Assembly (NCBI GenBank): GCA_964563495.1
Contig: CAZLYK010000009.1
Coordinates: 45 to 64,044, forward strand
DNA: 64,000 nucleotides
DNA from: an uncultured Heliobacteriaceae bacterium
Lineage (GTDB): Bacteria; Acidobacteriota; Blastocatellia; RBC074
Direction: 5' to 3'
The position numbers and the translations under genes were made by a program. Of this stretch, positions 51,918 through 64,000 are shown piece by piece (position 1 is the stretch's first letter; every line of letters starts with the position of its first letter). The notes under the pieces were generated by a model, which saw only the letters and a program-made list of their open reading frames with translations, did no database searches and was not told where the DNA came from.

Positions 51918-53459
51918 CTACTGATCGAGCCGTTTAATTCGTCCTTCAAGTTTCGGCGCAACTTCTCCCGCCGCCGCGATCGAGTTCGCAAGCATAGTCG
52001 AATCAATCTGAGCCGATTCCTGGGAGATCAGAAACCGTAGTCCCTGGAGCATCTTGTAACCATCGCCGCCGCCGGTCAGGTAAGCATTGGTCGCAAGCGA
52101 ATAAAGCCTCTTTTGATCAAGCGGCTGACCCCCGACCATAACCTTGACAACGCGGGATCCAGCAGGCTTTCGGCCGTCAAATTCAAACTGTATCCCTGAA
52201 ACCTGCGGGAACCTTCCGCTTTCGGTCTCTTCAACCACCTGGCTAACGCCGTTCTCCAGGGCGGCCAGCAATAAAACCCCGCTGATCTCCACTTTCACCA
52301 CCGGGGTCTCAAACGGGAGCATGGTAACGACATCGCGTTTGGTTATCGCCCCCGGCTGGTAGGTCATATTGGCGCGAATCGAGCCGCCGTTGAAGAGAGC
52401 GACATCAGCGCCGGTCGCCTGCCGGAATGAGTCGGCGATCAGGTTGCCCAGGTTGGTCTCGCGATTGCGACTGTTGATTGCCAGAGCATCCAGTGGAACA
52501 GCAGCGCGGCCCACCGGCTTGTCCATCTCGGCCGAGACCTTCTTTTCATATTCTCCGATCACCGCCGCCACTACCGGATCGTCCGGGGTCTCATTGGTCA
52601 CGGGTATTCCGGCCCAATCAATACTTTCAAGCCTGCGGGTTGAGGCGTTGAGATTCAGATCGATTCGCCCCAGGACACGCGCATCCGATCCCCACTTGAA
52701 GATCGGGGCGTGGCCTGCGTGCGATTGCAGCAACTCGTGCTCGTGACCGCCGATGATAACGTCGACCAGTCCCGTGCGCGCCAGCTCTTTGTCCTCGCTC
52801 ATCGCCAGATGTGTCATGGCGATGATGATTGTCGCCCCCTCCGCTCGCATTCTCCTGACGATCCGTTTGGCGGACAGGATCGGATTAACCAACCTGATGT
52901 TGGGGCCGGGCTTCGAACTGGTCTGGGCATCTCTCGTCAGCAATCCGAACAGACCGACCCTTACCCCTCCAAATTTGCGAATTACGTAAGGAGGCATGTG
53001 GTTGAAAGGCTTGCCGGTCTTGCGGTCGATTACGTTTGACCCCAGCCATACGAACTTCGATTCCTTCATCCGTTCGAGCAGAATGTCATCACCGAAATCG
53101 AATTCGTGATTTCCCAGAACGGCGTAATCAAGTCCGAGAGCATTCCATGCAGCGATCATCTGCGCGCCACGGAAAATGCTCGATGCGACCGATGGCGAAA
53201 TCGTGTCGCCGCCGAGCAGGAAGAGCGTGTTGGGCGACTCCGCCATAATCTTTTGACGCAGAGTCGCCACCCGCGCGAGGCCGGCGTTTTTGCCCTTGTC
53301 AACGGGCGACATCTGGTAGACATCGTTCAGTTGCAGGAGCGTCACGCGGACCAGGCGTTCGTTTCGGCTCTTTTTCTGTGCGATGGCAGGCCCCGAAAGA
53401 CAGAACAGTAGCAGAACAGCCAGGGTGATACCCAGCCTTGAAACGCGAGTTGAGACCAT
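51918..53459 (-). CDS. bifunctional metallophosphatase/5'-nucleotidase
   Basis: calcineurin-like metallophosphoesterase motifs (GNHEFD) plus 5'-nucleotidase C-terminal domain; signal peptide. Confidence 0.8.
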
Positions 53460-53762: not shown

Positions 53763-54851
53763 ATGAACGATCGGGAATTGCTCGTCGGCATCAACTATCC
53801 GTGGTTGGATTACGCCTGGGATTTCGGCGATCCGCCGCCGGCGTGGGTCAACCCGCTTGACCTGGCCGTGTGGCGGGAGCAGAAGAGAGCCCGAATAGTC
53901 GAGGACTTTCAGGCTTTTGCCGAGATGGGATTTTTCGCCGTCCGATGGTTTTTGCTCGGAGACGGGACGAATTACGGCGTCGATCTTGACGCCCCGCGGC
54001 AGATCGATCATGAGTGGTCTTTTGAGCCATTGCCCGAATCTCATCCTTTCAACCGGCAATTCCTCAGCGATTTTCAGTTCGTTTTGGAGACCTGCGCCCG
54101 GGTCGGCCTCAAATTGGCGCCGTCGCTGATAGACTTTCATTGGTGTCATCGCGGCTCTACGGTCGGCGGCAATCCGGGGATTGTCAAAGGCGGGCGGTAT
54201 CAGATCGTTCGTGATCCGGGGAAGCGGGAAGCCTTTTTCAATCAGTTGCTCGAACCGTTGCTCGACCTTTCAATGAAGTATCGCGATGCCATCTACGCCT
54301 GGGAGCTGATCAACGAGCCCGAGTGGGTTATCGCGCGACCATCGCTGACCCAATTAATTGCCGGGGTCGATCAGGACAAGACAGTCAGCCAGAAAGAGAT
54401 GAAGTCTTTCATCGCTCAAGGCATGGAGAGGATCAATCGTCGAGTCCTGGCTGACGGCAGCCCGGCGTTTCAATCGACGGTCGGCTTTGCCCATTGGGGA
54501 AGCGTTGAGGATTGGAGCTCGGCCGATCTCGGCGTCAGGCTCCACCAGTTCCATTATTACGCGCAAGCGGAAGCGGATCTGCCGCAGGATGGGCTTTCTT
54601 TGCCGGAGCCATGTTTTATCGGAGAGTTTGCCACGGCGGTCGAACGGGAATGGCCGGAGTTGAAGCGAAGCGGGTTGGAGCAGACGATCAGCAATCGTTT
54701 GCGCGCAATCGAGAAGAACAAATATCAATCGGCATTCTTATGGTCGGCCAAGGCCGTTGATCTGGCGACCCGTTGGACGGCGGAAGATCAGCGCGACACG
54801 ATAGCCTATCTCAATCCGGGTCAGGGACGTCCGTCGGGGGAAGTCGCTTGA
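53763..54851 (+). CDS. glycoside hydrolase, GH5-like
   Basis: AWELINEPEW (N-E-P acid/base signature of clan GH-A / GH5); no signal peptide. Confidence 0.5.
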   Translation: MNDRELLVGINYPWLDYAWDFGDPPPAWVNPLDLAVWREQKRARIVEDFQAFAEMGFFAVRWFLLGDGTNYGVDLDAPRQIDHEWSFEPLPESHPFNRQFLSDFQFVLETCARVGLKLAPSLIDFHWCHRGSTVGGNPGIVKGGRYQIVRDPGKREAFFNQLLEPLLDLSMKYRDAIYAWELINEPEWVIARPSLTQLIAGVDQDKTVSQKEMKSFIAQGMERINRRVLADGSPAFQSTVGFAHWGSVEDWSSADLGVRLHQFHYYAQAEADLPQDGLSLPEPCFIGEFATAVEREWPELKRSGLEQTISNRLRAIEKNKYQSAFLWSAKAVDLATRWTAEDQRDTIAYLNPGQGRPSGEVA

Positions 54852-54855
54852 AGCG

Positions 54856-56004
54856 TCAATTGAGCGATTGCTGTTTCAATTCGTCGCGAATCAATTGGGA
54901 GACCGGATTCCATGGGCGGAGCTGTGAGATGAAATCCAGGGTGTGTTCCACCCCACGCTCCCTGATCAGTTTTTGCATCTCGGCCGCCTGGGGATCGCCT
55001 TCCTGGGCGAAAGAGAGGGCTGCGGCGCATCCCTGGATCAGATAGGTCGGCTCGATGCTGTAACGATATGCAAGCTTAGCGGGGCCGATCAGCCGGTCTT
55101 CGGCTTGAAGCTTGCGGACCGGGTCGCGCCCGACGCGCGCGATCGTGTCTTTGAGCGCGGCGTTGGAGAAGCTGGTCAGAATTTCGCTGATCAGGTTGCC
55201 GTAGTGCAGCGTTCGGCCGTGCTTACTTTGCAGCGCGCTCTGGGCCTCGAGCATGGCGCCTACCACTGCCCGGTTGATCGTTTCATCGGCCATGGCTTCG
55301 TGAATGTAAGTGTAGCCCTTGCGGTAACCCAGATAGGCGCAGACGGCGTGGCCGCAATTGAGGATATAGAGCTTCTCTTCGATGCTCGCGGGGAAGTTGT
55401 CCAATCCTTTGAAAGGCGGCAGCACCTCGAACTCGCCCTTGACCTGGAGAGTGTCGAAGAGCACGTCACCGGTCGCGTCGGCCGTGATCACTATGCGACC
55501 TTCCTGATCGGTATCCTGAGCCGAGACGATGCGATCGGAGATAGCGGCGTTGAACCCGACATAATCCTGGATCTGCTGGGCGAATTGAAAAGGGATATTG
55601 GCGAAGACCAGCCTTTCAATCTGCGAGCCGGCGTTCTTGAGGTTCTCACAACAGAAGACATCGAGCGGGCTTCCGATCTCGGACTTGATCCGATACAAGA
55701 GGGCTTCCGCCAGGATCGACGAGATCTCCGGAAGGTTATCAGGGCGAACAGCAGTATAGATCTGGTCGGCTTCGGCGACTTCGCGGACGAAATCCGGCGT
55801 GGTCATATTGACGGCCCGGACGCCTCTCACCTCGATCTGCGCTTCGACCACGCCCTTGGTCACGACGTCGTAGCCCAATTTGTTTATCGAATGGACGATC
55901 TCGTCGCGTCGGGCGGCGAAGACGATTTCATGGCCCTGCATTGTGAGCGCCACGCCCAGCGCGCCGCAACCGACTCGACCGGCACCGATAATCACAATTC
56001 GCAC
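54856..56004 (-). CDS. mannitol dehydrogenase family protein (MtlD-like)
   Basis: N-terminal IVIIGAGRVG Rossmann motif and overall 382-aa architecture of mannitol-1-phosphate 5-dehydrogenase. Confidence 0.6.
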   Translation of the reverse strand: MRIVIIGAGRVGCGALGVALTMQGHEIVFAARRDEIVHSINKLGYDVVTKGVVEAQIEVRGVRAVNMTTPDFVREVAEADQIYTAVRPDNLPEISSILAEALLYRIKSEIGSPLDVFCCENLKNAGSQIERLVFANIPFQFAQQIQDYVGFNAAISDRIVSAQDTDQEGRIVITADATGDVLFDTLQVKGEFEVLPPFKGLDNFPASIEEKLYILNCGHAVCAYLGYRKGYTYIHEAMADETINRAVVGAMLEAQSALQSKHGRTLHYGNLISEILTSFSNAALKDTIARVGRDPVRKLQAEDRLIGPAKLAYRYSIEPTYLIQGCAAALSFAQEGDPQAAEMQKLIRERGVEHTLDFISQLRPWNPVSQLIRDELKQQSLN

Positions 56005-56029: not shown

Positions 56030-58273
56030 TTACCTCAACAATGCCTCGACCTTGGCGAGCAACTCCTCGAAGACCATCCGGCGTTTGCTGAGAAAGTCGT
56101 CGGCGCCCGATTGGAGGGCCTCGATCTTGTCTTCGAGCCCCTGGCGGCCGCCGAGCAGAATGACCGGGGTCTCGCGTTTGCGCTTGCGCAATTCGCGGCA
56201 GACGTCGAAACCCGAGTGGTGCTCAAGCAGGGCGTCGAGGATAAGCAATTGATAGTTCTGTTTGGAGTCTGATGCGCGTTCGAGCGCCTCGCGACCGTCC
56301 TGCACCCGCTCGACCTGATAGTTCTCGACCTCCAACCCTCGCTGCAAAATGGCGGCGAGCTCTTCGTTTGAGACGGCGACCATGATCTGTTGGATCTGTG
56401 GCGTGACCGGCGGCTGCAGGGTGGTAGTCATGGTTTTATGGGCCAGTGAAAGCCTGGCCGTGCCGGACATGGCGGGCAGGACTGTCGTCATGGCGCCCTG
56501 GACGTCGGCGAGTGTGGTTGACGACAGTCTCTCTTCGATGCCTTGCAACTCCGCCATGGCGCCGAGCTTGGCGAAGAGGCGCTGAGCCTCTTCAAGGTGG
56601 GCGCGCGCCGATTCCAGCCGGTTCTGACCTATCCGTAGAGTCCCGATCGCCGTGTGGCAGAGCGCGGTGCGGAACGGGTCGCCGATGGTCTGGAAGATCG
56701 AGAGGCTCTGGCTGAAACAGCGGTTGGCCTCGGTTGCCTGTCCGGCTTTGGCGTGAATCCAGCCGCGCGTGTAAAGCGCGCGGCCCATGAGATTCAAAGC
56801 CGGATCGAGCGATGTCGCAGCCTCGGCCGTTTCGACCTGATCTCTGGCTTTTTCCAGCTCGCCGTTGTTGGCATAGATCAGCGCCAGTTCCAGGGAGATC
56901 AGCACCTGCTCCTCGATCGCTCCGCGCTCGCGCGCCGCGATCGCCCCTTTTTCCAAAGCCTCTATCGCTTCCGGCGTCTGGCCGCGCGCCTGCAGAATGC
57001 GCCCGAGAATCCGCTGGGTCCTGGCATAGACCGTTTGACCGTGGAGTTTTTGCGCGGCCTCGATGGTCTCCAGCGCGGCATTCAGATCGCCCTGCAGCAA
57101 TTTCAGTTCCGCCTGATCGGTCAGCGCCACGGCCTCGGCTTTGGAGAGCCTGTGCTGCCGGGCCAGTCGCAACCTGTCTTCGAGCAGTTTCTCGGTCGCC
57201 GTCCACGACCCAAGCCGGGTTAGCACGCGCGAGAGACTGCTGTAGGCCTTGAGCAGCAACCTCGCGTTCCCGGTCGTTTCAAGCAATTGAATGGCCTCCT
57301 GGTAAGCCGGGATGGCCTCTCTCAGTTTACCCTCGGTGTAGAGGATGAGCGCCAGTTGCATTTGAATGCGGCCTTGTAAGAGCGCGTCTTTTGTCTCTTC
57401 GGCCAGCCGCGATGCACGGTTCCAATTGTAATTCGCCCCCTCGAAATCACCCTCTTTCCAGTCGGCTTTGCCGGCCAGGAAATGGACTTCGGAGCGAAGC
57501 CGCGAATTGCCGGCGCGGCGAGAGGCAGTCGCGGCGCGGTGCAGGTGATCGCGAGCCGAGACCAGGTCGTTGAGGCCGATCAACGCCCGGCCCAGAGATG
57601 CATGGGCGCCGGCGATCGCGGTCTCGTCGCCCGTCTCCTGATCGATCTTCCCGGCGAGGTCCAAGCAACGGACAAGGGTCTTGATCGCAGTCTTGTAATC
57701 TTTCTGCTCGATTTGTATCCGGCCGATCGAGAGCAGCACCATGGCCCGCAAAGCGGCGGGGAGCGATTCCAGCTCGGGTGACTCGTGATATTTCGCCAGG
57801 ACCTCTCGCGCCAGAGTGTGGTTGCCTTTATTGAGATGGGCTTCGGCCAGAATCCGGCGCAGGTTGGCCTCTTCGGCGTCGTCGGTACAGGGGGCCTCGA
57901 GCTTGCCCGAGAGTGAGTCGATCAGGTTCTCGGTCGTGCTTCGCGCATGAGGCTGTGGGACGGTGGTCCCTTTCTGGCTCAGTCTGAAGACCGCTTCCGG
58001 GCCGTTGCTGCCGAACCGTAGAACGTCGCCGTCATTGAGCATCTGCTCGGAAACGCGCTCGCCGTTGACGAAGCTGCCGTTGGTCGAGCCGAGGTCTCGC
58101 ATGAGAAAATCGTCGCCGAGTCGGATCACCTCGGCGTGTGTCCGGGAGATGATCGTCTCGGGTATGCAGAGCGAACTTTCGGGGCCCCTGCCTATGGTAA
58201 AACGCGGCGTGTCGAGCGGAATCACTCTGACTTCGCCGTTACTGGTCAGCAGAAGTTCTGCGCGCAGTCCCAT
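56030..58273 (-). CDS. FHA domain - TPR repeat - response-regulator receiver domain signalling protein
   Basis: N-terminal FHA (RFTIGRGPESSLCIPE...STNGSFVNG), long TPR array, C-terminal REC domain (LLILDALLEHHSGFDVCRELR...LSKR). Confidence 0.75.
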   Translation of the reverse strand: MGLRAELLLTSNGEVRVIPLDTPRFTIGRGPESSLCIPETIISRTHAEVIRLGDDFLMRDLGSTNGSFVNGERVSEQMLNDGDVLRFGSNGPEAVFRLSQKGTTVPQPHARSTTENLIDSLSGKLEAPCTDDAEEANLRRILAEAHLNKGNHTLAREVLAKYHESPELESLPAALRAMVLLSIGRIQIEQKDYKTAIKTLVRCLDLAGKIDQETGDETAIAGAHASLGRALIGLNDLVSARDHLHRAATASRRAGNSRLRSEVHFLAGKADWKEGDFEGANYNWNRASRLAEETKDALLQGRIQMQLALILYTEGKLREAIPAYQEAIQLLETTGNARLLLKAYSSLSRVLTRLGSWTATEKLLEDRLRLARQHRLSKAEAVALTDQAELKLLQGDLNAALETIEAAQKLHGQTVYARTQRILGRILQARGQTPEAIEALEKGAIAARERGAIEEQVLISLELALIYANNGELEKARDQVETAEAATSLDPALNLMGRALYTRGWIHAKAGQATEANRCFSQSLSIFQTIGDPFRTALCHTAIGTLRIGQNRLESARAHLEEAQRLFAKLGAMAELQGIEERLSSTTLADVQGAMTTVLPAMSGTARLSLAHKTMTTTLQPPVTPQIQQIMVAVSNEELAAILQRGLEVENYQVERVQDGREALERASDSKQNYQLLILDALLEHHSGFDVCRELRKRKRETPVILLGGRQGLEDKIEALQSGADDFLSKRRMVFEELLAKVEALLR

Positions 58274-58463
58274 CGACGTCGCTCTCCTCTGCCAATACTC
58301 CCGAGCGCTTGCGCTCGGGAGTTATAGCATTTAAGAAAATGGTTTTCCGATTCTTAGCCTGCGAAGCAGGCGTCAGAATCCAGAAACTGTCCGACAAGCT
58401 GGCAGCTTGTCGGACAGCGCCGCCAAAAACGGCGCCAGTATAGCAAAGTATCCGATATTTTTC

Positions 58464-58491
58464 TTGACCATCCCGCTCTCAAAGCTATAAT
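58464..58491 (+). promoter_or_regulatory. sigma-70-like promoter for the ATP-grasp operon
   Basis: TTGACC (58464-58469), 16-nt spacer, perfect TATAAT (58486-58491), about 100 nt upstream of ATG 58591. Confidence 0.5.
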
Positions 58492-58590
58492 CGCCGCGCT
58501 AATAATTTGAAACCCTGGACGACCCCACAGGTTGATGCCCTCGATTCAAGAAGAATTTTCAAGCGAGAACAATAAAGGGGATAGTTGCGA

Positions 58591-59412
58591 ATGTCTTCCC
58601 GGCTTAGAATCGGCGTGCTCTCCGAAGCCCGTTATCTGGAACAGAGTCAGCCTTCAGGACTCAGCGCAGAGTTGCAGAAACAGGGCCATCTAATCACCGT
58701 CATCGACCCGCAAAAGGCCTTCTACGTCATGGGCGATAACGGCTGGCATTCAAGTTTTGATCTGCTCGTCGGGCGTGGGCGGAGCTGGGCGCTGCTGGCG
58801 CTGCTCGGCTGGGCTGAGCGTGGAGGAACGCCGACGATCAACCAGCAGGAGGCGATTGCCGCCGTCCACAACAAGGCAAATATGTCGATCGCGCTCGCCG
58901 CCGCCGGCCTGCCGATTCCACAGACCTTTTTCGGCAGCGTCGAATATCTGGCGAGCGAGGTTTCACCAAATGCATATCCGATTATTCTCAAGCCGATCTT
59001 CGGCGATAACTCACGTGGGCTGCTGGTTGTCGATACCCCGGAACAACTGAAGCGGATCGAGTGGCCCGAACCGGTCGCGCTGGCGCAGCGATATTTTCAG
59101 ACCGATGGTTACGATTTGAAGCTCTACGGCATCGGTGACGAGATCTGGGCGATCCGCAAGCGCTCGCCGTTCAATCAACCGGTCGGGGAGGTTGCCGAAG
59201 GAGTCGTCACTCTGACGCCGGAACTGCAGGACCTGGGCCGGCGCTGCGGCCGGCTCTTCGGCCTCGATCTCTTCGGGGTCGATTGCATACTGACCGATCA
59301 GGGCCCGCTCGTGATCGAGATCAACGATTATCCGAACTACACCAACGTCCCTGACGCGAACGCGCGGTTGGCGGCTTACGTGGTCAAACGGGTGGAAAAT
59401 AGACAGGATTGA
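58591..59412 (+). CDS. ATP-grasp family protein 1 (RimK/LysX/ITPK-like)
   Basis: LVVDTPEQ, AQRYFQTDGYDLKLYGIGDE, LFGVDCILTDQGPLVIEINDYPNYTNVP; ATG 58591 with SD aaagggga; C-terminal NRQD* from the repeat. Confidence 0.8.
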   Translation: MSSRLRIGVLSEARYLEQSQPSGLSAELQKQGHLITVIDPQKAFYVMGDNGWHSSFDLLVGRGRSWALLALLGWAERGGTPTINQQEAIAAVHNKANMSIALAAAGLPIPQTFFGSVEYLASEVSPNAYPIILKPIFGDNSRGLLVVDTPEQLKRIEWPEPVALAQRYFQTDGYDLKLYGIGDEIWAIRKRSPFNQPVGEVAEGVVTLTPELQDLGRRCGRLFGLDLFGVDCILTDQGPLVIEINDYPNYTNVPDANARLAAYVVKRVENRQD

Positions 59413-59470
59413 CGGGATGATTGCAGGATTCGGCCGGACACTGCAGGAATTTTGTCAATCCCGTCTATTT
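59398..59470. repeat. family A element, copy 20 (asymmetric centre), between ATP-grasp genes 1 and 2
   Basis: aatagacaggattgacgggatgattgcaggattcggccggacactgcaggaattttgtcaatcccgtctatttt. Confidence 0.85.
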
Positions 59471-59481
59471 TATTAAATCAA

Positions 59482-60279
59482 ATGAAAATCGGCGTTATCA
59501 CCAAGCGCGAAAAAGCGCACAAGTCAGGGTCGGTCATGCAGGAGGCAGCCGGTTTGTTGACCGGGCGCGGCCTGACCGTGGAGATGATCTATCCCGAGGA
59601 TGGAGTGATCGAGATCGAGCGGGTCAAAAATGATTGTGATCTCTACCTGCTCAAGTCCGGGAGCGAGATGGCCTTGAGCCTGGCCGGCGTGCTGCACGAA
59701 TCGTATGCGGATATCCTCAATCCTTATCCGATCGTCGTGCTCATGCGCGACAAGATCGTCTCGACCAAGATGCTGCAGGATGCCGGCGTGCCGTTGCCTG
59801 AGACCTTCTTTGCGGCCAAGGCCGATCAACTGGCCGAACTGTTGAACGATGGTCCGCTTGTAGTCAAGCCTTTCTGGGCCGCATCACAGGGTCGTGGAGT
59901 CCAGATCATGCGGACGGCTGATGATCTGCCAGGGATCAGCCCCGATCAAGATCTGGTCTTCGCACAGCGATATCACCAGCCGGATGGGCGCGACCATAAA
60001 TTGTATGTCATCGGGGAGGAGGTTTTCGGAGTCCGCCGGGTCTGGCCGCCGAGGACCCTCGAGGACAAGCTTGGAGAGCCATTCGAAGTGCCGGCCGAGA
60101 TGAGAGAGATCGCGCTGCGCTGCGGCCGGGCCTTTAACATCGGGCTTTACGGCGTCGATGTGATTATCAGCGAAGGTCATCCGTTCGTGGTCGATATCAA
60201 CACCTTCCCGGGTTTCAAAGGGGTGCCCGGCGCCGCGAATTTGCTGGCCGAATATATTCTCTCGGTTTTGAGTTCCTGA
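59482..60279 (+). CDS. ATP-grasp family protein 2 (paralog)
   Basis: LVVKPFWAASQGRGVQ, FAQRYHQPDGRDHKLYVIGEE, LYGVDVIISEGHPFVVDINTFPGFKGVP; start ambiguous (ATG 59482 has no SD; TTG 59452 lies inside the repeat arm). Confidence 0.7.
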   Translation: MKIGVITKREKAHKSGSVMQEAAGLLTGRGLTVEMIYPEDGVIEIERVKNDCDLYLLKSGSEMALSLAGVLHESYADILNPYPIVVLMRDKIVSTKMLQDAGVPLPETFFAAKADQLAELLNDGPLVVKPFWAASQGRGVQIMRTADDLPGISPDQDLVFAQRYHQPDGRDHKLYVIGEEVFGVRRVWPPRTLEDKLGEPFEVPAEMREIALRCGRAFNIGLYGVDVIISEGHPFVVDINTFPGFKGVPGAANLLAEYILSVLSS

Positions 60280-60293
60280 ATGAGGTGAGTTGA

Positions 60294-61121
60294 ATGAAGC
60301 TGCATTTTATGATCGTTCGTCGTGTTCCACCGGTGCCCAGCCCGGTGCTGGTCGAGGCCTATCAGATATTGCGCGGGCGCGGTTACACCGTCACTGAAGA
60401 CATCGCCGAAGAGGTCATGCAACGATCGGATCTGATCGAAGTTGAGCACGACGTCTATCTTCTCAAGTCCCACACCGAGCTATCGCTCGCGCTGGCGGGC
60501 ATTCTTTACACCCAGGGTGCGAACATCCTCAATCCCTATCAATCCTGTTCGCTGATTCAAAGCAAGATCATCACATCCAGGCTGCTCCGGAAAGCCGGCA
60601 TCCCGGCTCCCGATTCGTGGGTGACCGGAGATTTGAGCATGGCCAAACCGCTGCTTGAGAGGCATCCATTGATCATCAAGCCGCATATGGGGCATCGCGG
60701 TGCCGGCGTCAACCTGTGCCGGGTTCCGGAAGACATCGACAAGATCCCGGCTCCCGAGACGCCGGTGATCATCCAGGAGGCGATTCCCGGTCCGGGAGAG
60801 GATTTGAAGATCTACGTCGTCGGAGACCAGGTCTACGGCGTCAAGAAGGCCTTTTCGGAATCCAGTTTTTCCGTCGCCGGGCGCCACGTGCCGATCACCG
60901 ATGAGGTCATGGAGATCTCGCGCAGGGTCGGCCAGGTCTGCGGTTTGGGGCTCTATGGGTTGGATATTATCGAGAGCGACCGAGGTCCTTACGTGGTCGA
61001 TGTCAACTACTTCCCCGGCTACAAGGGCGTCCCGAATGCGGCGGGCATGATTGCCGATTACATAGATGATTATGCCAAAGGCCGGGTAGTCCTGACTCCG
61101 CCGGTGGCCAATGTCGTTTAG
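60294..61121 (+). CDS. ATP-grasp family protein 3 (paralog)
   Basis: [63 protein letters not shown]; SD aggtgag. Confidence 0.8.
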
Positions 61122-62388
61122 AGGCGGCAGAAGGGATGAGATTTTACCGGGGTTAACCAGAAGATGGTCGGGGAAGAGGGAATCGGTCAGCCCGGCGCTT
61201 TTGGGCATCCTGGCCGAAGGGTTTCTCTCGCGGTTGAGCTTTGGCGTAATCAGCTTTGCGTTGCCGATCTTTGCCTATCGCCGTCTGGGTTTGAGTCTGA
61301 GGGAGACGGGGCTGCTTTTCTCGCTCAATCTGGTCGCCGAGCAGTTGTTCAAGCCGTTGATGGGTTGGGTTGCGGATCACGTCGGCGTCAAGCGGACTTT
61401 TACGGTGGCGATCGCTTTGCGCAGCCTAGTCGCGTTATTGCTCGCCTTTGCCGTCTCGCCCTGGCACGTCTTCGCCATTCGCTTCCTCCACGGTTTCTCG
61501 GAATCGATGCGCGATCCGTCGGTCAATGTGCTGATCGTCGAGAACGCCAATCAGAGATCCCTGGCTTCGGCTTTTGGCTGGTATACGACGGCGAAGATGT
61601 CCGCCGGCTCGATCGGCAGGGCTCTTGGGGGCGCGCTGCTGGCGTTGGCAGTCGAAAACTATTCACTGGCCTTCATCTCCGCCTTTGCCTTGTCGATCCT
61701 TCCGCTCTACGTCGTTATGCGCTATGTTCGTGAACCGGGGAGACACGAGAAGCCGTTCGATCAGCGGACCGGTGATAAAGCAGCCGCATTCGAAGAGAGC
61801 AGGGCTAAGCGGAAGGGGATCTGGTCGGTCGCGATTCTGGGCTTTCTGATCGCCAGTACGGCCCAGATGATCAGCAATCTTTTTCCGATTCTGGCGATGG
61901 AGTACGGCGGTTTGAGCGCGGGGCAGATGAGCCTGATCTACTCGTTCTCGATCATCGTGGTGGTCGGGGCGGGGCCGATCTTCGGCTGGATATCCGATCA
62001 TGTCAGCCGCAAGCTGGTCTTGATGGTGCGCGGGATCGCCAACACCTGTTCGTCGTTGCTCTTCTTATATTTTCCGGGTTTTACCGGAATGTCCGCCGGT
62101 AATGTCGTCGATGCCATGGGCAAAGCGGCCTTCCGACCGGCGTGGGGCTCGCTCATGGCGCAAATTTCAACCGTCGATCGCCGGCGTCGCGCGCGCGTCA
62201 TGAGTTATTTGAGCCTGGGTGAAGGTCTGGGGGAGACTATCGGGCCGCTGCTCGGCGGTTTTCTCTGGCACTACTGGGGAGTCGGGGCCATGCTCGGCGT
62301 TCGCGTCGCGCTCGCCCTGATCGGCGAGATTTATGCCCTCGTTCTGTCGAGGGGATCTGTCAACAGTCCGGGAAAAAGCAGGGATTGA
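61111..62388 (+). CDS. MFS transporter
   Basis: 425 aa with about 12 predicted hydrophobic helices; embedded between ATP-grasp genes 3 and 4, overlapping both (11 nt and 4 nt). Confidence 0.7.
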
Positions 62389-62426
62389 AAAGATTCCGGA
62401 AAAGACCTGTGGAATGGGAGACTGAT

Positions 62427-63287
62427 ATGCGTATCTGTTTTTTGATGGAGCCGCCGCGGAGCAAAGATTCCGTGACCTATGAAGTGCTCAATGGTTTGAA
62501 GGCCGGCGGCGCCGATGTCGAGGTGGTGACCGAGCGCAGCGGTTTGATCGATCTTGAAAACTTCAAATTCGATTATGACCTTTATCTGTTCAAATCGCAT
62601 TCGCCGCTGGCCGAATCTCTTGCAGCCGCGGCTCATTATCGCGGCGCGAAGCTGTTTAACGATTATCCGGCGACGATGAAGGTTCGTGACAAGGTCCTGA
62701 CCTGTACGCTTTTGCTGCAGGGCGACATCCCCACGCCAAAGACCTTTGTCACCGATTCGATCGAGACGCTACGCCCGGTCGTGCGCGAAATCCCGATCGT
62801 CGTCAAACCTTATCGCGGTCGCCGCGGCGAAGGCATCGAGGTCTGCCTCAATCAATCGCAGTTTGATGAGCTGGTCAAAAAACGGGCGGGAATGCCCGCC
62901 GGCGATCCCGATGAGGGCGGAGGTGAGGATGGGACCGCCCTCGGCGAGCGGTTGATCTTCGCCCAGGAATATCTCGAGCACGAACCGTTCGATTACAAAG
63001 CCTATGCGATCGGCGATTACGTCCACGTGATCAAACGCATCTTCCCGGCAAAGACCAAAGAGGAAAAATTGGGCACGCCGGTCGAGAATGATCCCGAGCT
63101 GTTCGACCTGGTCAGACGGTGCGGGAAGCTTTTCGGGCTCCAGCTTTATGGCGTCGATCTGGTCAAGACACCTCACGGCTTTTCAGTGATCGAGGTCAAC
63201 TGCTTCCCGGGTTATAAAGGCGTGCCGCAGGGCGGCGAGCGGATCTCTAATTTCATACTTGAAAAATCCGGGATTCGAGGTGAATAA
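62427..63287 (+). CDS. ATP-grasp family protein 4 (paralog with acidic Gly-rich insert)
   Basis: [63 protein letters not shown]; ATG 62427 with SD ggga. Confidence 0.8.
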
Positions 63288-63420
63288 ACAAAGGGCGGGC
63301 AACATCTGGTCGTAAGTCCTCATCTCAGAGGCCGTTTTAGAAGCCCCAACAAGAAATAAGCTGTAGACGGAGGGGCCTGCTGGACAGGCTGAAGACTTTT
63401 TTAGGAGGAACGGGTGATTT

Positions 63421-64000
63421 ATGAATGATAATTCGGGATTGAACTTTGGGAGAGGTAAGGGTTTTAGAGGGGCGAACCGGCTGATGATCATGCTGGCCGT
63501 AATCCTGGCTTCGGCGCTCATGACCGGCGCCGCTTTTGCTCACTATCTGCTCACGGATGAAATGAAGACCGAATCTTCAAAGAAAGACGAGAAAGAGAAG
63601 AAGGCAGACAAGAAGAAATCAAAGTCCGTTGATGACGATGATGAAGACAGCGATAAGAGCAGGAAAATCGAAAAAGAGTCCAGGGCAAAGAGTTCGGACT
63701 TGAAATCGGAATCCGGAAAATCTGAGACGAAGGCGGTGAAGAATTCGGCACCGACCGTTTCTCTGACGGTTGCAGCGTTGGAATCGGTCAATGCGACGGT
63801 CGAGACCGATCCCGTGCCGCACGGCGGTGATGCTGCAGACGATCCGGCGATCTGGATCAACCAGGCCGATCCGTCGCAAAGCACGATCATCGGTACCGAC
63901 AAACAGGGAGGGCTGGCGGTCTACGATCTCAGCGGCAAACAGATTCAATACCTGGCCGACGGCAAGATGGATAACGTCGATCTGCGCGATGGGTTCAAGC
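63421..64000 (+). CDS. beta-propeller phytase (3-phytase), 5' partial, runs off the window
   Basis: signal/TM, acidic K/D/E linker, then [48 protein letters not shown] matching the Bacillus-type BPP phytase N-terminal blade; SD aggagg; the minus-strand ORFs listed here in the track are spurious. Confidence 0.7.

Follow-up and report, generated by a model that had tools for sequence, protein, structure and literature searches.

A conserved bacterial cluster of RimK-related ATP-grasp paralogues, a mannitol-1-phosphate dehydrogenase-type enzyme and an efflux-type transporter: a possible route to polyol phosphates

What might four consecutive ATP-grasp genes, a transporter gene and a phytase gene make together? 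The question is raised by a gene cluster near the end of a 64,000-nucleotide stretch of DNA from an uncultured soil acidobacterium (the window: the whole of the sequence analysed, positions 45 to 64,044 of contig CAZLYK010000009.1, GenBank assembly GCA_964563495.1). An initial annotation had described, at 58298-63420, a promoter-led array of four ATP-grasp paralogues (here AG1-AG4) with an embedded MFS transporter and a phytase directly downstream. All of these genes are present and intact, and the paralogues are anciently diverged, with pairwise identities of 29-37%. The limits given for the cluster were too tight, because a mannitol-1-phosphate dehydrogenase-type gene (DH; 54856-56004, minus strand) is part of the system. 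The operon probably builds, exports and processes a highly charged sugar-alcohol derivative. The reading that we favour, and hold tentatively, is that the AGs would phosphorylate mannitol-1-phosphate in successive steps and that the product would then be exported. The assembly of an oligo-amide or of an inositol phosphate had been proposed initially; this proposal is supported in part and is narrowed here to export after a derivatization, probably by phosphorylation, of a scaffold that is likely to be an acyclic hexitol phosphate and not inositol. The features of the locus, in window coordinates, are as follows.

54856-56004, minus strand: DH, mannitol-1-phosphate-5-dehydrogenase-type oxidoreductase; 382 residues, Pfam Mannitol_dh N- and C-terminal domains.
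56030-58273, minus strand: FHA-TPR-receiver regulator; 747 residues, Pfam FHA, TPR_12/TPR_MalT and Response_reg.
58464-58491, plus strand: sigma-70-type promoter of the AG1-AG4 operon, TTGACC-16-TATAAT; 11/12 consensus matches.
58591-59412, plus strand: AG1, divergent RimK-superfamily ATP-grasp enzyme; 273 residues, Pfam RimK 40.8 bits, Ins134_P3_kin 29.6 bits, rimK_fam 84.5 bits.
59482-60279, plus strand: AG2, ATP-grasp paralogue; 265 residues, Pfam RimK 48.9 bits, Ins134_P3_kin 32.9 bits.
60294-61121, plus strand: AG3, ATP-grasp paralogue, the best conserved between phyla; 275 residues.
61111-62388, plus strand: MFS transporter, probably the product exporter; 425 residues, MFS_1 169 bits.
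62427-63287, plus strand: AG4, fourth ATP-grasp paralogue; 286 residues, ATPgrasp_ST 43.9 bits, RimK 39.4 bits, Ins134_P3_kin 37.2 bits.
63421-64000, plus strand: secreted beta-propeller phytase, 5' part, truncated by the end of the window; PF02333 80.9 bits for the fragment.

Start codons were set by reference to conserved orthologue N-termini and to independent gene predictions. The regulator gene is divergent from AG1 and lies upstream of DH on the same strand. The MFS gene, initially reported to overlap both of its neighbours, does overlap AG3 (by 11 nucleotides) but is separated from AG4 by a 38-nucleotide spacer that contains a GGGAG ribosome-binding site when the conserved ATG at 62427 is used. 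Each AG has an orthologue group of its own, with 50-88% identity kept in dozens of genomes; given this and the low identity between paralogues, the AGs are neither recent duplicates nor pseudogenes. AG4 carries a 21-residue acidic/Gly insert and is seen in Blastocatellia only. The N-terminal motif D-[LV]-Y-L-[LF]-K-S, which had been attributed to all four proteins, is found in AG2, AG3 and AG4, while AG1 has DLLVGRGRS. The absence of a LysW-like carrier, a precursor peptide or any other tailoring gene had also been noted. Neither a carrier nor a precursor peptide is present: the intergenic gaps of 14-133 nucleotides contain no conserved small open reading frame (ORF) and are too short for a carrier gene. 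The statement fails for tailoring genes, since DH belongs to the system.

The AGs keep the ATP-grasp fold, the pre-ATP-grasp domain, the ATP-binding Lys and the Mg2+ ligands, and all four match the Pfam RimK, ATP-grasp_3 and Ins134_P3_kin models. Their scores against models of characterized ligases are low: 68.6-84.5 bits for rimK_fam (TIGR00768; cut-off 143.4), 60.7-74.5 bits for LysX (cut-off 275.6), 52-71 for MptN (cut-off 350), at most 37 for CofF (cut-off 300) and at most 40 for RimK (PRK10446; cut-off 331). A profile search of PDB sequences returned RimK at 89 bits, LysX at 72 bits and ITPK1 at 62 bits. The Foldseek ranking was the same, with small differences, and the closest relatives by fold and sequence are not ITPKs. 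Within the ATP-grasp superfamily the AGs sit in the RimK/LysX branch but lie outside every characterized ligase family. Alignment with Escherichia coli RimK further shows that the N-x-x-R-G-G loop, which follows the central beta-hairpin, is absent from all four proteins. The initial description of the AGs as RimK/LysX relatives that lack this loop is therefore upheld by both the scores and the alignment. No gene for rpsF, lysW or an acidic-tailed carrier was found in the window region or in four related loci (L002, L004, L088 and L089).

The most informative difference from the ligases lies on the substrate side of the active site. In RimK the carboxylate destined to become the acyl-phosphate is bound by R189, and the Arg is conserved in LysX/ArgX (R173) and TTL (R202) as well (PMC10375531). 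In the alignment this position is Lys in all four AGs. The Lys is present in 255 of 256 AG orthologues and in 144 of 155 domains taken from 150 mutually diverse representatives of the family. By paralogue, it is found in every orthologue of AG1 (Lys177, 64/64), AG2 (Lys183 when numbered from the alternative TTG start at 59452, 64/64) and AG4 (Lys191, 46/46); in AG3 the residue is Lys172. Human ITPK1, for which the sequence used is identical to that of PDB entries 2ODT and 2Q7D, aligns with its K199 on this invariant Lys. In the human enzyme, K199, H167 and R212 are the inositol-phosphate contacts with the highest conservation (PMC6900528). The residue equivalent to R212 is Lys or Arg in the AGs and is also basic in RimK; H167 sits in an unalignable loop in which the AGs have a conserved Arg. 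A comparison by eye places the Lys of PPIP5K2 (DVKVYTVG) at the same point of a shared D-x-K-x-Y motif.

The C-terminal NxFPG[FY]xGV block had been described as resembling that of ITPK1, and a comparison of bit scores between the RimK and PF05770 models had been suggested. When this comparison was run, both models were matched by all four AGs, with Ins134_P3_kin (PF05770) scores of 29.6-48.1 bits against a threshold of 23. The matches cover only positions ~130-200 of the 201-position profile, corresponding to the Mg/ATP block. This is the C-terminal ~60 residues of the AGs, which are equally RimK-like. The likeness to ITPK1 holds in that all four proteins exceed the threshold, but the block is shared with RimK and does not discriminate between the two families. 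The stronger pointer to a kinase-like site, which the initial annotation did not include, is the invariant Lys at the RimK R189 position.

Variation at the metal site is found among AG2-like domains. The Mg-binding Asn of the D-x-N motif is replaced by Ser in 12 and by Cys in one of the 64 AG2 orthologues. Fusions of an AG2-like domain to an inositol-monophosphatase-family domain form ~30 protein clusters and provide the fourth ATP-grasp gene in L088 and L089. In these fusions the Mg-binding Asn is Gln, and the third metal-binding Asp of the phosphatase domain is Gly in most members (WD to WG). The Asn-substituted AG2 forms and the fusions of the P0125 type may, from their sequences, be pseudo-enzymes or altered-metal variants. 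Other architectures were also observed. A separate cluster (L090:9001-17542) has an AG2-like domain fused to a GT28 glycosyltransferase (715 residues), of which there are many near-identical metagenome copies, followed by a second GT28 gene, three APH-family kinase genes, an ABC exporter and a TonB-dependent receptor. A similar fusion with a long C-terminal region, P0199 (728 residues), has Thr in place of the hallmark Lys. Among P0229, P0243, P0253 and P0137, three proteins combine an N-terminal response-regulator receiver domain with an ATP-grasp domain and one combines an ABC-transporter ATPase with an ATP-grasp domain.

The nature of the scaffold is suggested by DH. The window protein aligns end to end with the MtlD structure 3H2Z (199 bits). 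It keeps the catalytic K-x4-N-x2-H signature, read as KLYILNCGH, the catalytic Glu-Asn and a phosphate-binding Arg triad (RVGRDPVRKLQAEDR) equivalent to R283/R287/R294 of the Staphylococcus aureus mannitol-1-phosphate dehydrogenase (SaM1PDH). In the S. aureus enzyme three Arg residues form the phosphate pocket, a conserved feature of M1PDHs that mannitol-2-dehydrogenases do not share (PMC6623548). Of the 54 cluster-linked DH copies, 47 have the triad, including all 37 of the Blastocatellia type, and the motif RVGR[DE]PxRKLxxxxR is found in cluster-embedded DHs of every phylum. In those non-acidobacterial copies that were aligned, Ser takes the place of the oxyanion Asn. The best NCBIfam equivalog score is 250.6 bits against a cut-off of 368 (NF002646), which makes DH a member of a related subfamily and not a certified MtlD. 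The retained Arg phosphate pocket and the alignment with MtlD indicate that the scaffold is very probably a ketose or alditol phosphate, with fructose-6-phosphate and mannitol-1-phosphate as the default pair.

Several further genes lie on the far side of DH. A 362-residue ORF (53763-54851, plus strand) without a Pfam or NCBIfam match contains a NEP motif (WELINEPEW) as in GH5 glycoside hydrolases, and it adjoins DH in several Blastocatellia loci. A UshA-type 5'-nucleotidase/metallophosphoesterase (51918-53459, minus strand) is a further phosphoesterase beside the cluster. Farther upstream are genes for a galactarate/altronate dehydratase, PQQ-like propellers, a di-haem cytochrome c peroxidase and a GFO/IDH/MocA oxidoreductase with a xylose-isomerase-like TIM barrel.

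The distribution of the cluster defines its core. AG3 has 973 homologues in the protein collection searched. In a scan of one genome per species, 133 genomes encode AG3 relatives; the 80 loci listed from these are all from metagenome-assembled genomes (MAGs). The ORFs of 85 loci were classified against the window proteins. The cluster spans at least seven phyla, which are represented mostly by soil and sediment MAGs. In Blastocatellia, DH and the FHA-TPR-receiver gene are usually divergent from an AG1-AG2-AG3-MFS-AG4-phytase series, which continues, in some cases after a phytase-like propeller gene, with a gene for an FHA/Ser-Thr-kinase/MFS protein. Six other phyla (Chloroflexota, Actinomycetota, Eisenbacteria, Gemmatimonadota, Rokubacteria and Gammaproteobacteria) have a single-strand arrangement, AG1-AG2-DH-AG3-MFS, and in the loci classified AG4, the phytase and the kinase-MFS fusion are absent from the clusters of these six phyla. 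Myxococcota-like metagenome contigs have the same five genes followed by the fusion of an AG2-like domain to an inositol-monophosphatase-family domain. The position of DH between AG2 and AG3 outside Acidobacteria, together with full-length DH-AG3 fusion proteins (P0127), identifies DH as a core member. The conserved core is AG1-AG2-DH-AG3-MFS, and AG4, the phytase and the FHA-kinase-MFS sensor are additions in Blastocatellia.

A profile built from the four paralogues retrieves 364 clusters (at 50% identity) at E<=1e-30 and 12,342 at E<=1e-3. One apparent domain fusion, P0119 (463 residues), was rejected, as it is merely a merged AG2-AG3 gene call. The AG3 of L006, an Acidobacteria/Blastocatellia MAG, is 88% identical to that of the window. 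L009, L014, L021, L024, L028, L030, L033, L036 and others encode an AG3 of 82-87% identity in records titled 'uncultured Heliomicrobium sp.', 'Heliobacteriaceae' or 'Clostridia'; the taxonomy of these records looks wrong, since gene content and identity place the MAGs with Blastocatellia. No published description of the cluster, or of any bacterial ITPK-like pathway, was found in the literature searched, and a 2026 preprint that mentions ITPK1 treats its archaeal origin only. The initial remark that no such pathway is described in bacteria of this kind agrees with this result. What lacks a description is the Lys-type AG clade, together with the operon and its regulation; the protein families themselves are known.

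The accessory genes share a chemical theme. The complete phytase, available from a second assembly of the same DNA (L001), has 435 residues and scores 337 bits against PF02333 (threshold 21; profile positions 31-353 of 375). Its N-terminal part (63421-63760) encodes a hydrophobic signal or anchor and then a ~70-residue low-complexity linker rich in K, E, D and S, which precedes the propeller. By its family and predicted signal it would be a secreted beta-propeller phytase. The gene after AG4 is a phytase in 34 of 40 loci and stays nearby after inversions, so that the association with a phytase directly downstream, as initially noted, is a real link in Blastocatellia. An NHL or 'phytase-like' propeller gene is also found in Blastocatellia loci, and in two gammaproteobacterial MAGs a sulfotransferase gene is located between DH and AG3. 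Judged by family, every recurrent accessory enzyme works on hydroxyl groups esterified with phosphate or sulfate, and none on amino acids. Genes for an aminotransferase, racemase, acyltransferase or peptidase do not accompany the cluster in any lineage of the annotated loci.

The transport components point to export. The MFS protein, which is conserved after AG3 in all phyla, has the efflux pumps NorA and QacA as its nearest solved structures. A DUF5916 protein of ~770 residues adjoins the cluster in five diderm loci; its signal peptide and C-terminal ...YLWRF beta-signal mark it as an outer-membrane barrel, and it has no relative among solved structures. In the Myxococcota-like L088 and L089 a divergent MacAB-type pump adjoins the cluster. 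TonB-dependent receptors, which are common in Acidobacteria, occur near the cluster in L002 and L004, and a siderophore reading was set aside as this adjacency is not conserved.

Regulation is unusually uniform, in that FHA-domain proteins with differing outputs adjoin the cluster in four phyla: the FHA-TPR-receiver protein in Blastocatellia, an FHA-winged-helix-turn-helix protein with a Ser/Thr kinase in Chloroflexota, FHA proteins in Actinomycetota and an FHA-sigma54 activator in the Myxococcota-like contigs. In Blastocatellia the phytase is followed by a protein of 1,026-1,133 residues that combines FHA, Ser/Thr kinase and MFS parts (L002:14767-17847; L004:14760-18161). Its MFS domain is a specific paralogue of the cluster MFS (E = 7e-26, over both halves), and in L052, L053, L057 and L060, which are without a stand-alone MFS gene, it is the sole MFS protein. 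From this architecture, a ligand-sensing 'transceptor' function for the protein is plausible.

Upstream of AG1, TTGACC-16-TATAAT was the sole promoter-like site in a scan of 6.2 kb, and a single such site is not above chance here (2.5 were expected from shuffled sequences). However, TTGAC-N16/17-TATAATCGCC is kept in 13 of 14 orthologous Blastocatellia spacers, the other parts of which cannot be aligned, and the conserved block comprises the -35 element, the -10 element and a CGCC that follows it. On the strength of this conservation the site at 58464-58491 is accepted as a real promoter, as initially proposed. The leader is ~95 nucleotides long and its sequence is not conserved among these spacers. 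A riboswitch or leader RNA was rejected on this ground and because a search of 58200-64000 gave no credible match to an Rfam family. Two other elements were observed in the divergent spacer. A perfect 15+15-nucleotide palindrome at 58387-58417 (CTGTCCGACAAGCTG / CAGCTTGTCGGACAG) precedes the AG1 promoter; related loci do not share it, and it could be a strain-specific operator or hairpin. Most Blastocatellia spacers also retain the sequence AGTATA(A/G)CA (58434-58446 in the window) upstream of the -35 element; its minus-strand reading, TGnTATACT, is probably the extended -10 of the divergent operon that encodes the FHA-TPR-receiver protein and DH.

These observations can be combined into a pathway. 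The MtlD-type DH would, by homology, reduce fructose-6-phosphate or a close ketose phosphate to mannitol-1-phosphate. AG1-AG3, together with AG4 in Blastocatellia, would then each use ATP at a different position of this scaffold. The likeliest chemistry is O-phosphorylation, with the AGs acting as kinases of the ITPK1/PPIP5K2 type rather than as acyl-phosphate ligases, and an acyclic 'phytate-like' alditol polyphosphate would result. The efflux-type MFS protein would move this product over the inner membrane, and in diderm phyla the neighbouring outer-membrane barrels or the MacAB-type pump would finish its export. In Blastocatellia the secreted phytase and the phytase-like propeller would hydrolyse phosphomonoesters outside the cell, either for product processing or for phosphorus recovery. 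The FHA-Ser/Thr-kinase protein would sense the ligand via its exporter-paralogous MFS domain and signal through the FHA regulators to the conserved promoter.

Phosphoryl transfer to hydroxyls is favoured by the Lys-for-Arg signature and the missing NxxRGG loop of the ligases, by a scaffold that has neither carboxylate nor amine, and by accessory enzymes that all act on phospho- or sulfo-esters. A pathway of this kind would also need only fructose-6-phosphate, NAD(P)H and ATP. Lokiarchaeum carries two pairs of ITPK1 homologues that flank its inositol-phosphate synthase (IPS) genes, and ITPK1 phosphorylates InsP1 stepwise (PMC6900528). The present cluster has the layout of this close precedent, with an acyclic polyol probably in place of inositol.

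Several points weigh against such a pathway. The glycine-rich ATP loop of the AGs is, by its sequence, RimK-like, and the replacement of Arg by Lys is conservative, so that carboxylate binding could still be possible. The AG-inositol-monophosphatase fusion may be a non-catalytic binding module, in view of its Asn-to-Gln change and the loss of a metal-binding Asp. The MFS protein resembles drug/H+ antiporters and not organophosphate transporters. Export of a phosphorus-rich metabolite is physiologically puzzling and would need a rationale such as chelation combined with recovery by the phytase, or extracellular maturation. We know of no natural alditol polyphosphate. With these reservations, the full scheme of a bacterial 'soluble route' to acyclic polyol polyphosphates (DH, Lys-type ATP-grasp kinases, export, and acidobacterial turnover by phytase under the control of a Ser/Thr-kinase/FHA 'transceptor') is put forward more cautiously than the kinase activity and export by themselves.

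In the principal alternative the AGs would be ligases that join a carboxylate to an amine or a hydroxyl, as do RimK, LysX, MptN, CofF and VanA, and would add amino acids stepwise to a hexitol phosphate or to each other. The phosphate might finally be removed inside the cell by the fused inositol-monophosphatase-type domain or outside it by the phytase, following the pattern of compatible-solute or prodrug pathways with a phosphorylated intermediate; the exported product might be a polyol with peptidyl or aminoacyl groups that serves, for instance, as a chelator, signal or antimetabolite. We consider this alternative possible but doubtful. The characterized proteins nearest to the AGs in sequence and in fold are without exception amino-acid ligases, both the glycine-rich loop and the pre-ATP-grasp domain are of the RimK/LysX kind, a terminal phosphatase would suit a synthase-phosphatase logic, and the MFS protein is of the efflux type. 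Moreover, a layout of ATP-grasp ligase plus MFS exporter is known from bacilysin, tabtoxin and vibrioferrin. Yet mannitol-1-phosphate offers no carboxylate or amine, and none of the cluster's versions contains an enzyme that would provide one. The Arg that clamps the carboxylate is replaced family-wide, the NxxRGG loop is absent, and genes for amino-acid modification, acetylation, racemization or peptidase activity do not occur with the cluster in any phylum. Beta-propeller phytases, in addition, prefer substrates with adjacent phosphates.

If the AGs were instead true inositol phosphate kinases of the ITPK type, they would either build inositol phosphates (InsPx) or run in reverse and salvage phosphate or ATP from phytase products imported by the MFS protein. 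The above-threshold PF05770 scores, the adjacent phytase, the inositol-monophosphatase-family domain fused to an AG in the Myxococcota-like contigs and the Lys at the K199 position would all suit this explanation. We nevertheless judge it improbable. Inositol-phosphate metabolism is disfavoured because no annotated locus contains an inositol-phosphate synthase gene and because most of the phyla that carry the cluster have no neighbouring phytase; the universal partner is an MtlD-type DH for acyclic ketose or alditol phosphates, the PF05770 match is confined to the C-terminal end, and the MFS protein is efflux-like. Reverse phosphotransfer from lower inositol phosphates is also thermodynamically unfavourable. 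Least probable by far is the explanation that the AGs are ordinary RimK/LysX genes with a housekeeping role, or the outcome of a recent tandem duplication whose copies are decaying, and that their neighbours are functionally unrelated. Homologues are annotated automatically as 'ribosomal protein S6--L-glutamate ligase', which would agree with it, but all four proteins are far below the rimK_fam, LysX, MptN and CofF cut-offs, catalytic residues are kept in each cross-phylum orthologue group, the paralogues are divergent, no rpsF or lysW gene is nearby, and synteny and fusions tie the AGs to DH, the MFS protein and phosphatases. Ordinary RimK function and recent duplication, both envisaged in the initial annotation, are excluded by the scores, the divergence, the orthologue groups and the synteny. 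Of the explanations considered, we continue to favour stepwise phosphorylation of mannitol-1-phosphate.

If the AGs are kinases, the stepwise ATP-grasp synthesis of polyol phosphates that is known in eukaryotes and Asgard archaea would also occur in bacteria, and on an acyclic scaffold. The ~364 clusters at 50% identity (E<=1e-30) would form a new functional ATP-grasp clade, and beta-propeller phytases would gain a dedicated endogenous substrate, which would bear on the unexplained pool of organic phosphomonoesters in soil. With the complete soluble route, the ITPK1 pathway would have its first counterpart in bacteria, and phosphomonoester phosphorus would have a previously unrecognized microbial source and sink. 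If the AGs are ligases, the cluster would still encode a widely conserved secreted metabolite, with an unusual sensor in which a Ser/Thr kinase is fused to a copy of the exporter. On either interpretation the system is directly testable, as it consists of five or six small soluble or membrane proteins with common substrates.

Among known systems, the AGs differ from RimK, LysX, ArgX, MptN and CofF in scoring below every curated cut-off, in having Lys in place of Arg189, in the deletion of the NxxRGG loop and in the absence of an S6 or LysW partner. They also come as three or four specialized paralogues together with a sugar-phosphate dehydrogenase, a transporter and phosphoesterases. With ITPK1 they share the Lys at K199, a basic residue at the R212 position (where RimK is basic too) and the C-terminal D-x-N-x-F-P-G-[YF]-x-G-V block. 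PPIP5K/Vip1/Asp1 enzymes, in contrast, are eukaryotic and phosphorylate an existing phosphate of InsP6/7, and their phosphatase domain is histidine-acid-phosphatase-like, whereas that of the AG fusions is inositol-monophosphatase-like. DH resembles MtlD in keeping the catalytic and mannitol-binding residues and the Arg triad, but it differs in falling below the equivalog cut-offs, in the Asn-to-Ser change of the non-acidobacterial copies, in being embedded among ATP-grasp genes and in the absence of phosphotransferase system (PTS) or mannitol catabolic genes with the cluster. Acinetobacter MtlD is a dehydrogenase-phosphatase fusion for mannitol synthesis (PMC9168451), and the logic of a dehydrogenase followed by a phosphatase appears to recur here. 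The Lokiarchaeum ITPK-IPS cluster (PMC6900528) is alike in overall plan, in that several ATP-grasp paralogues are gathered around an NAD-dependent enzyme that converts a hexose phosphate to a polyol monophosphate.

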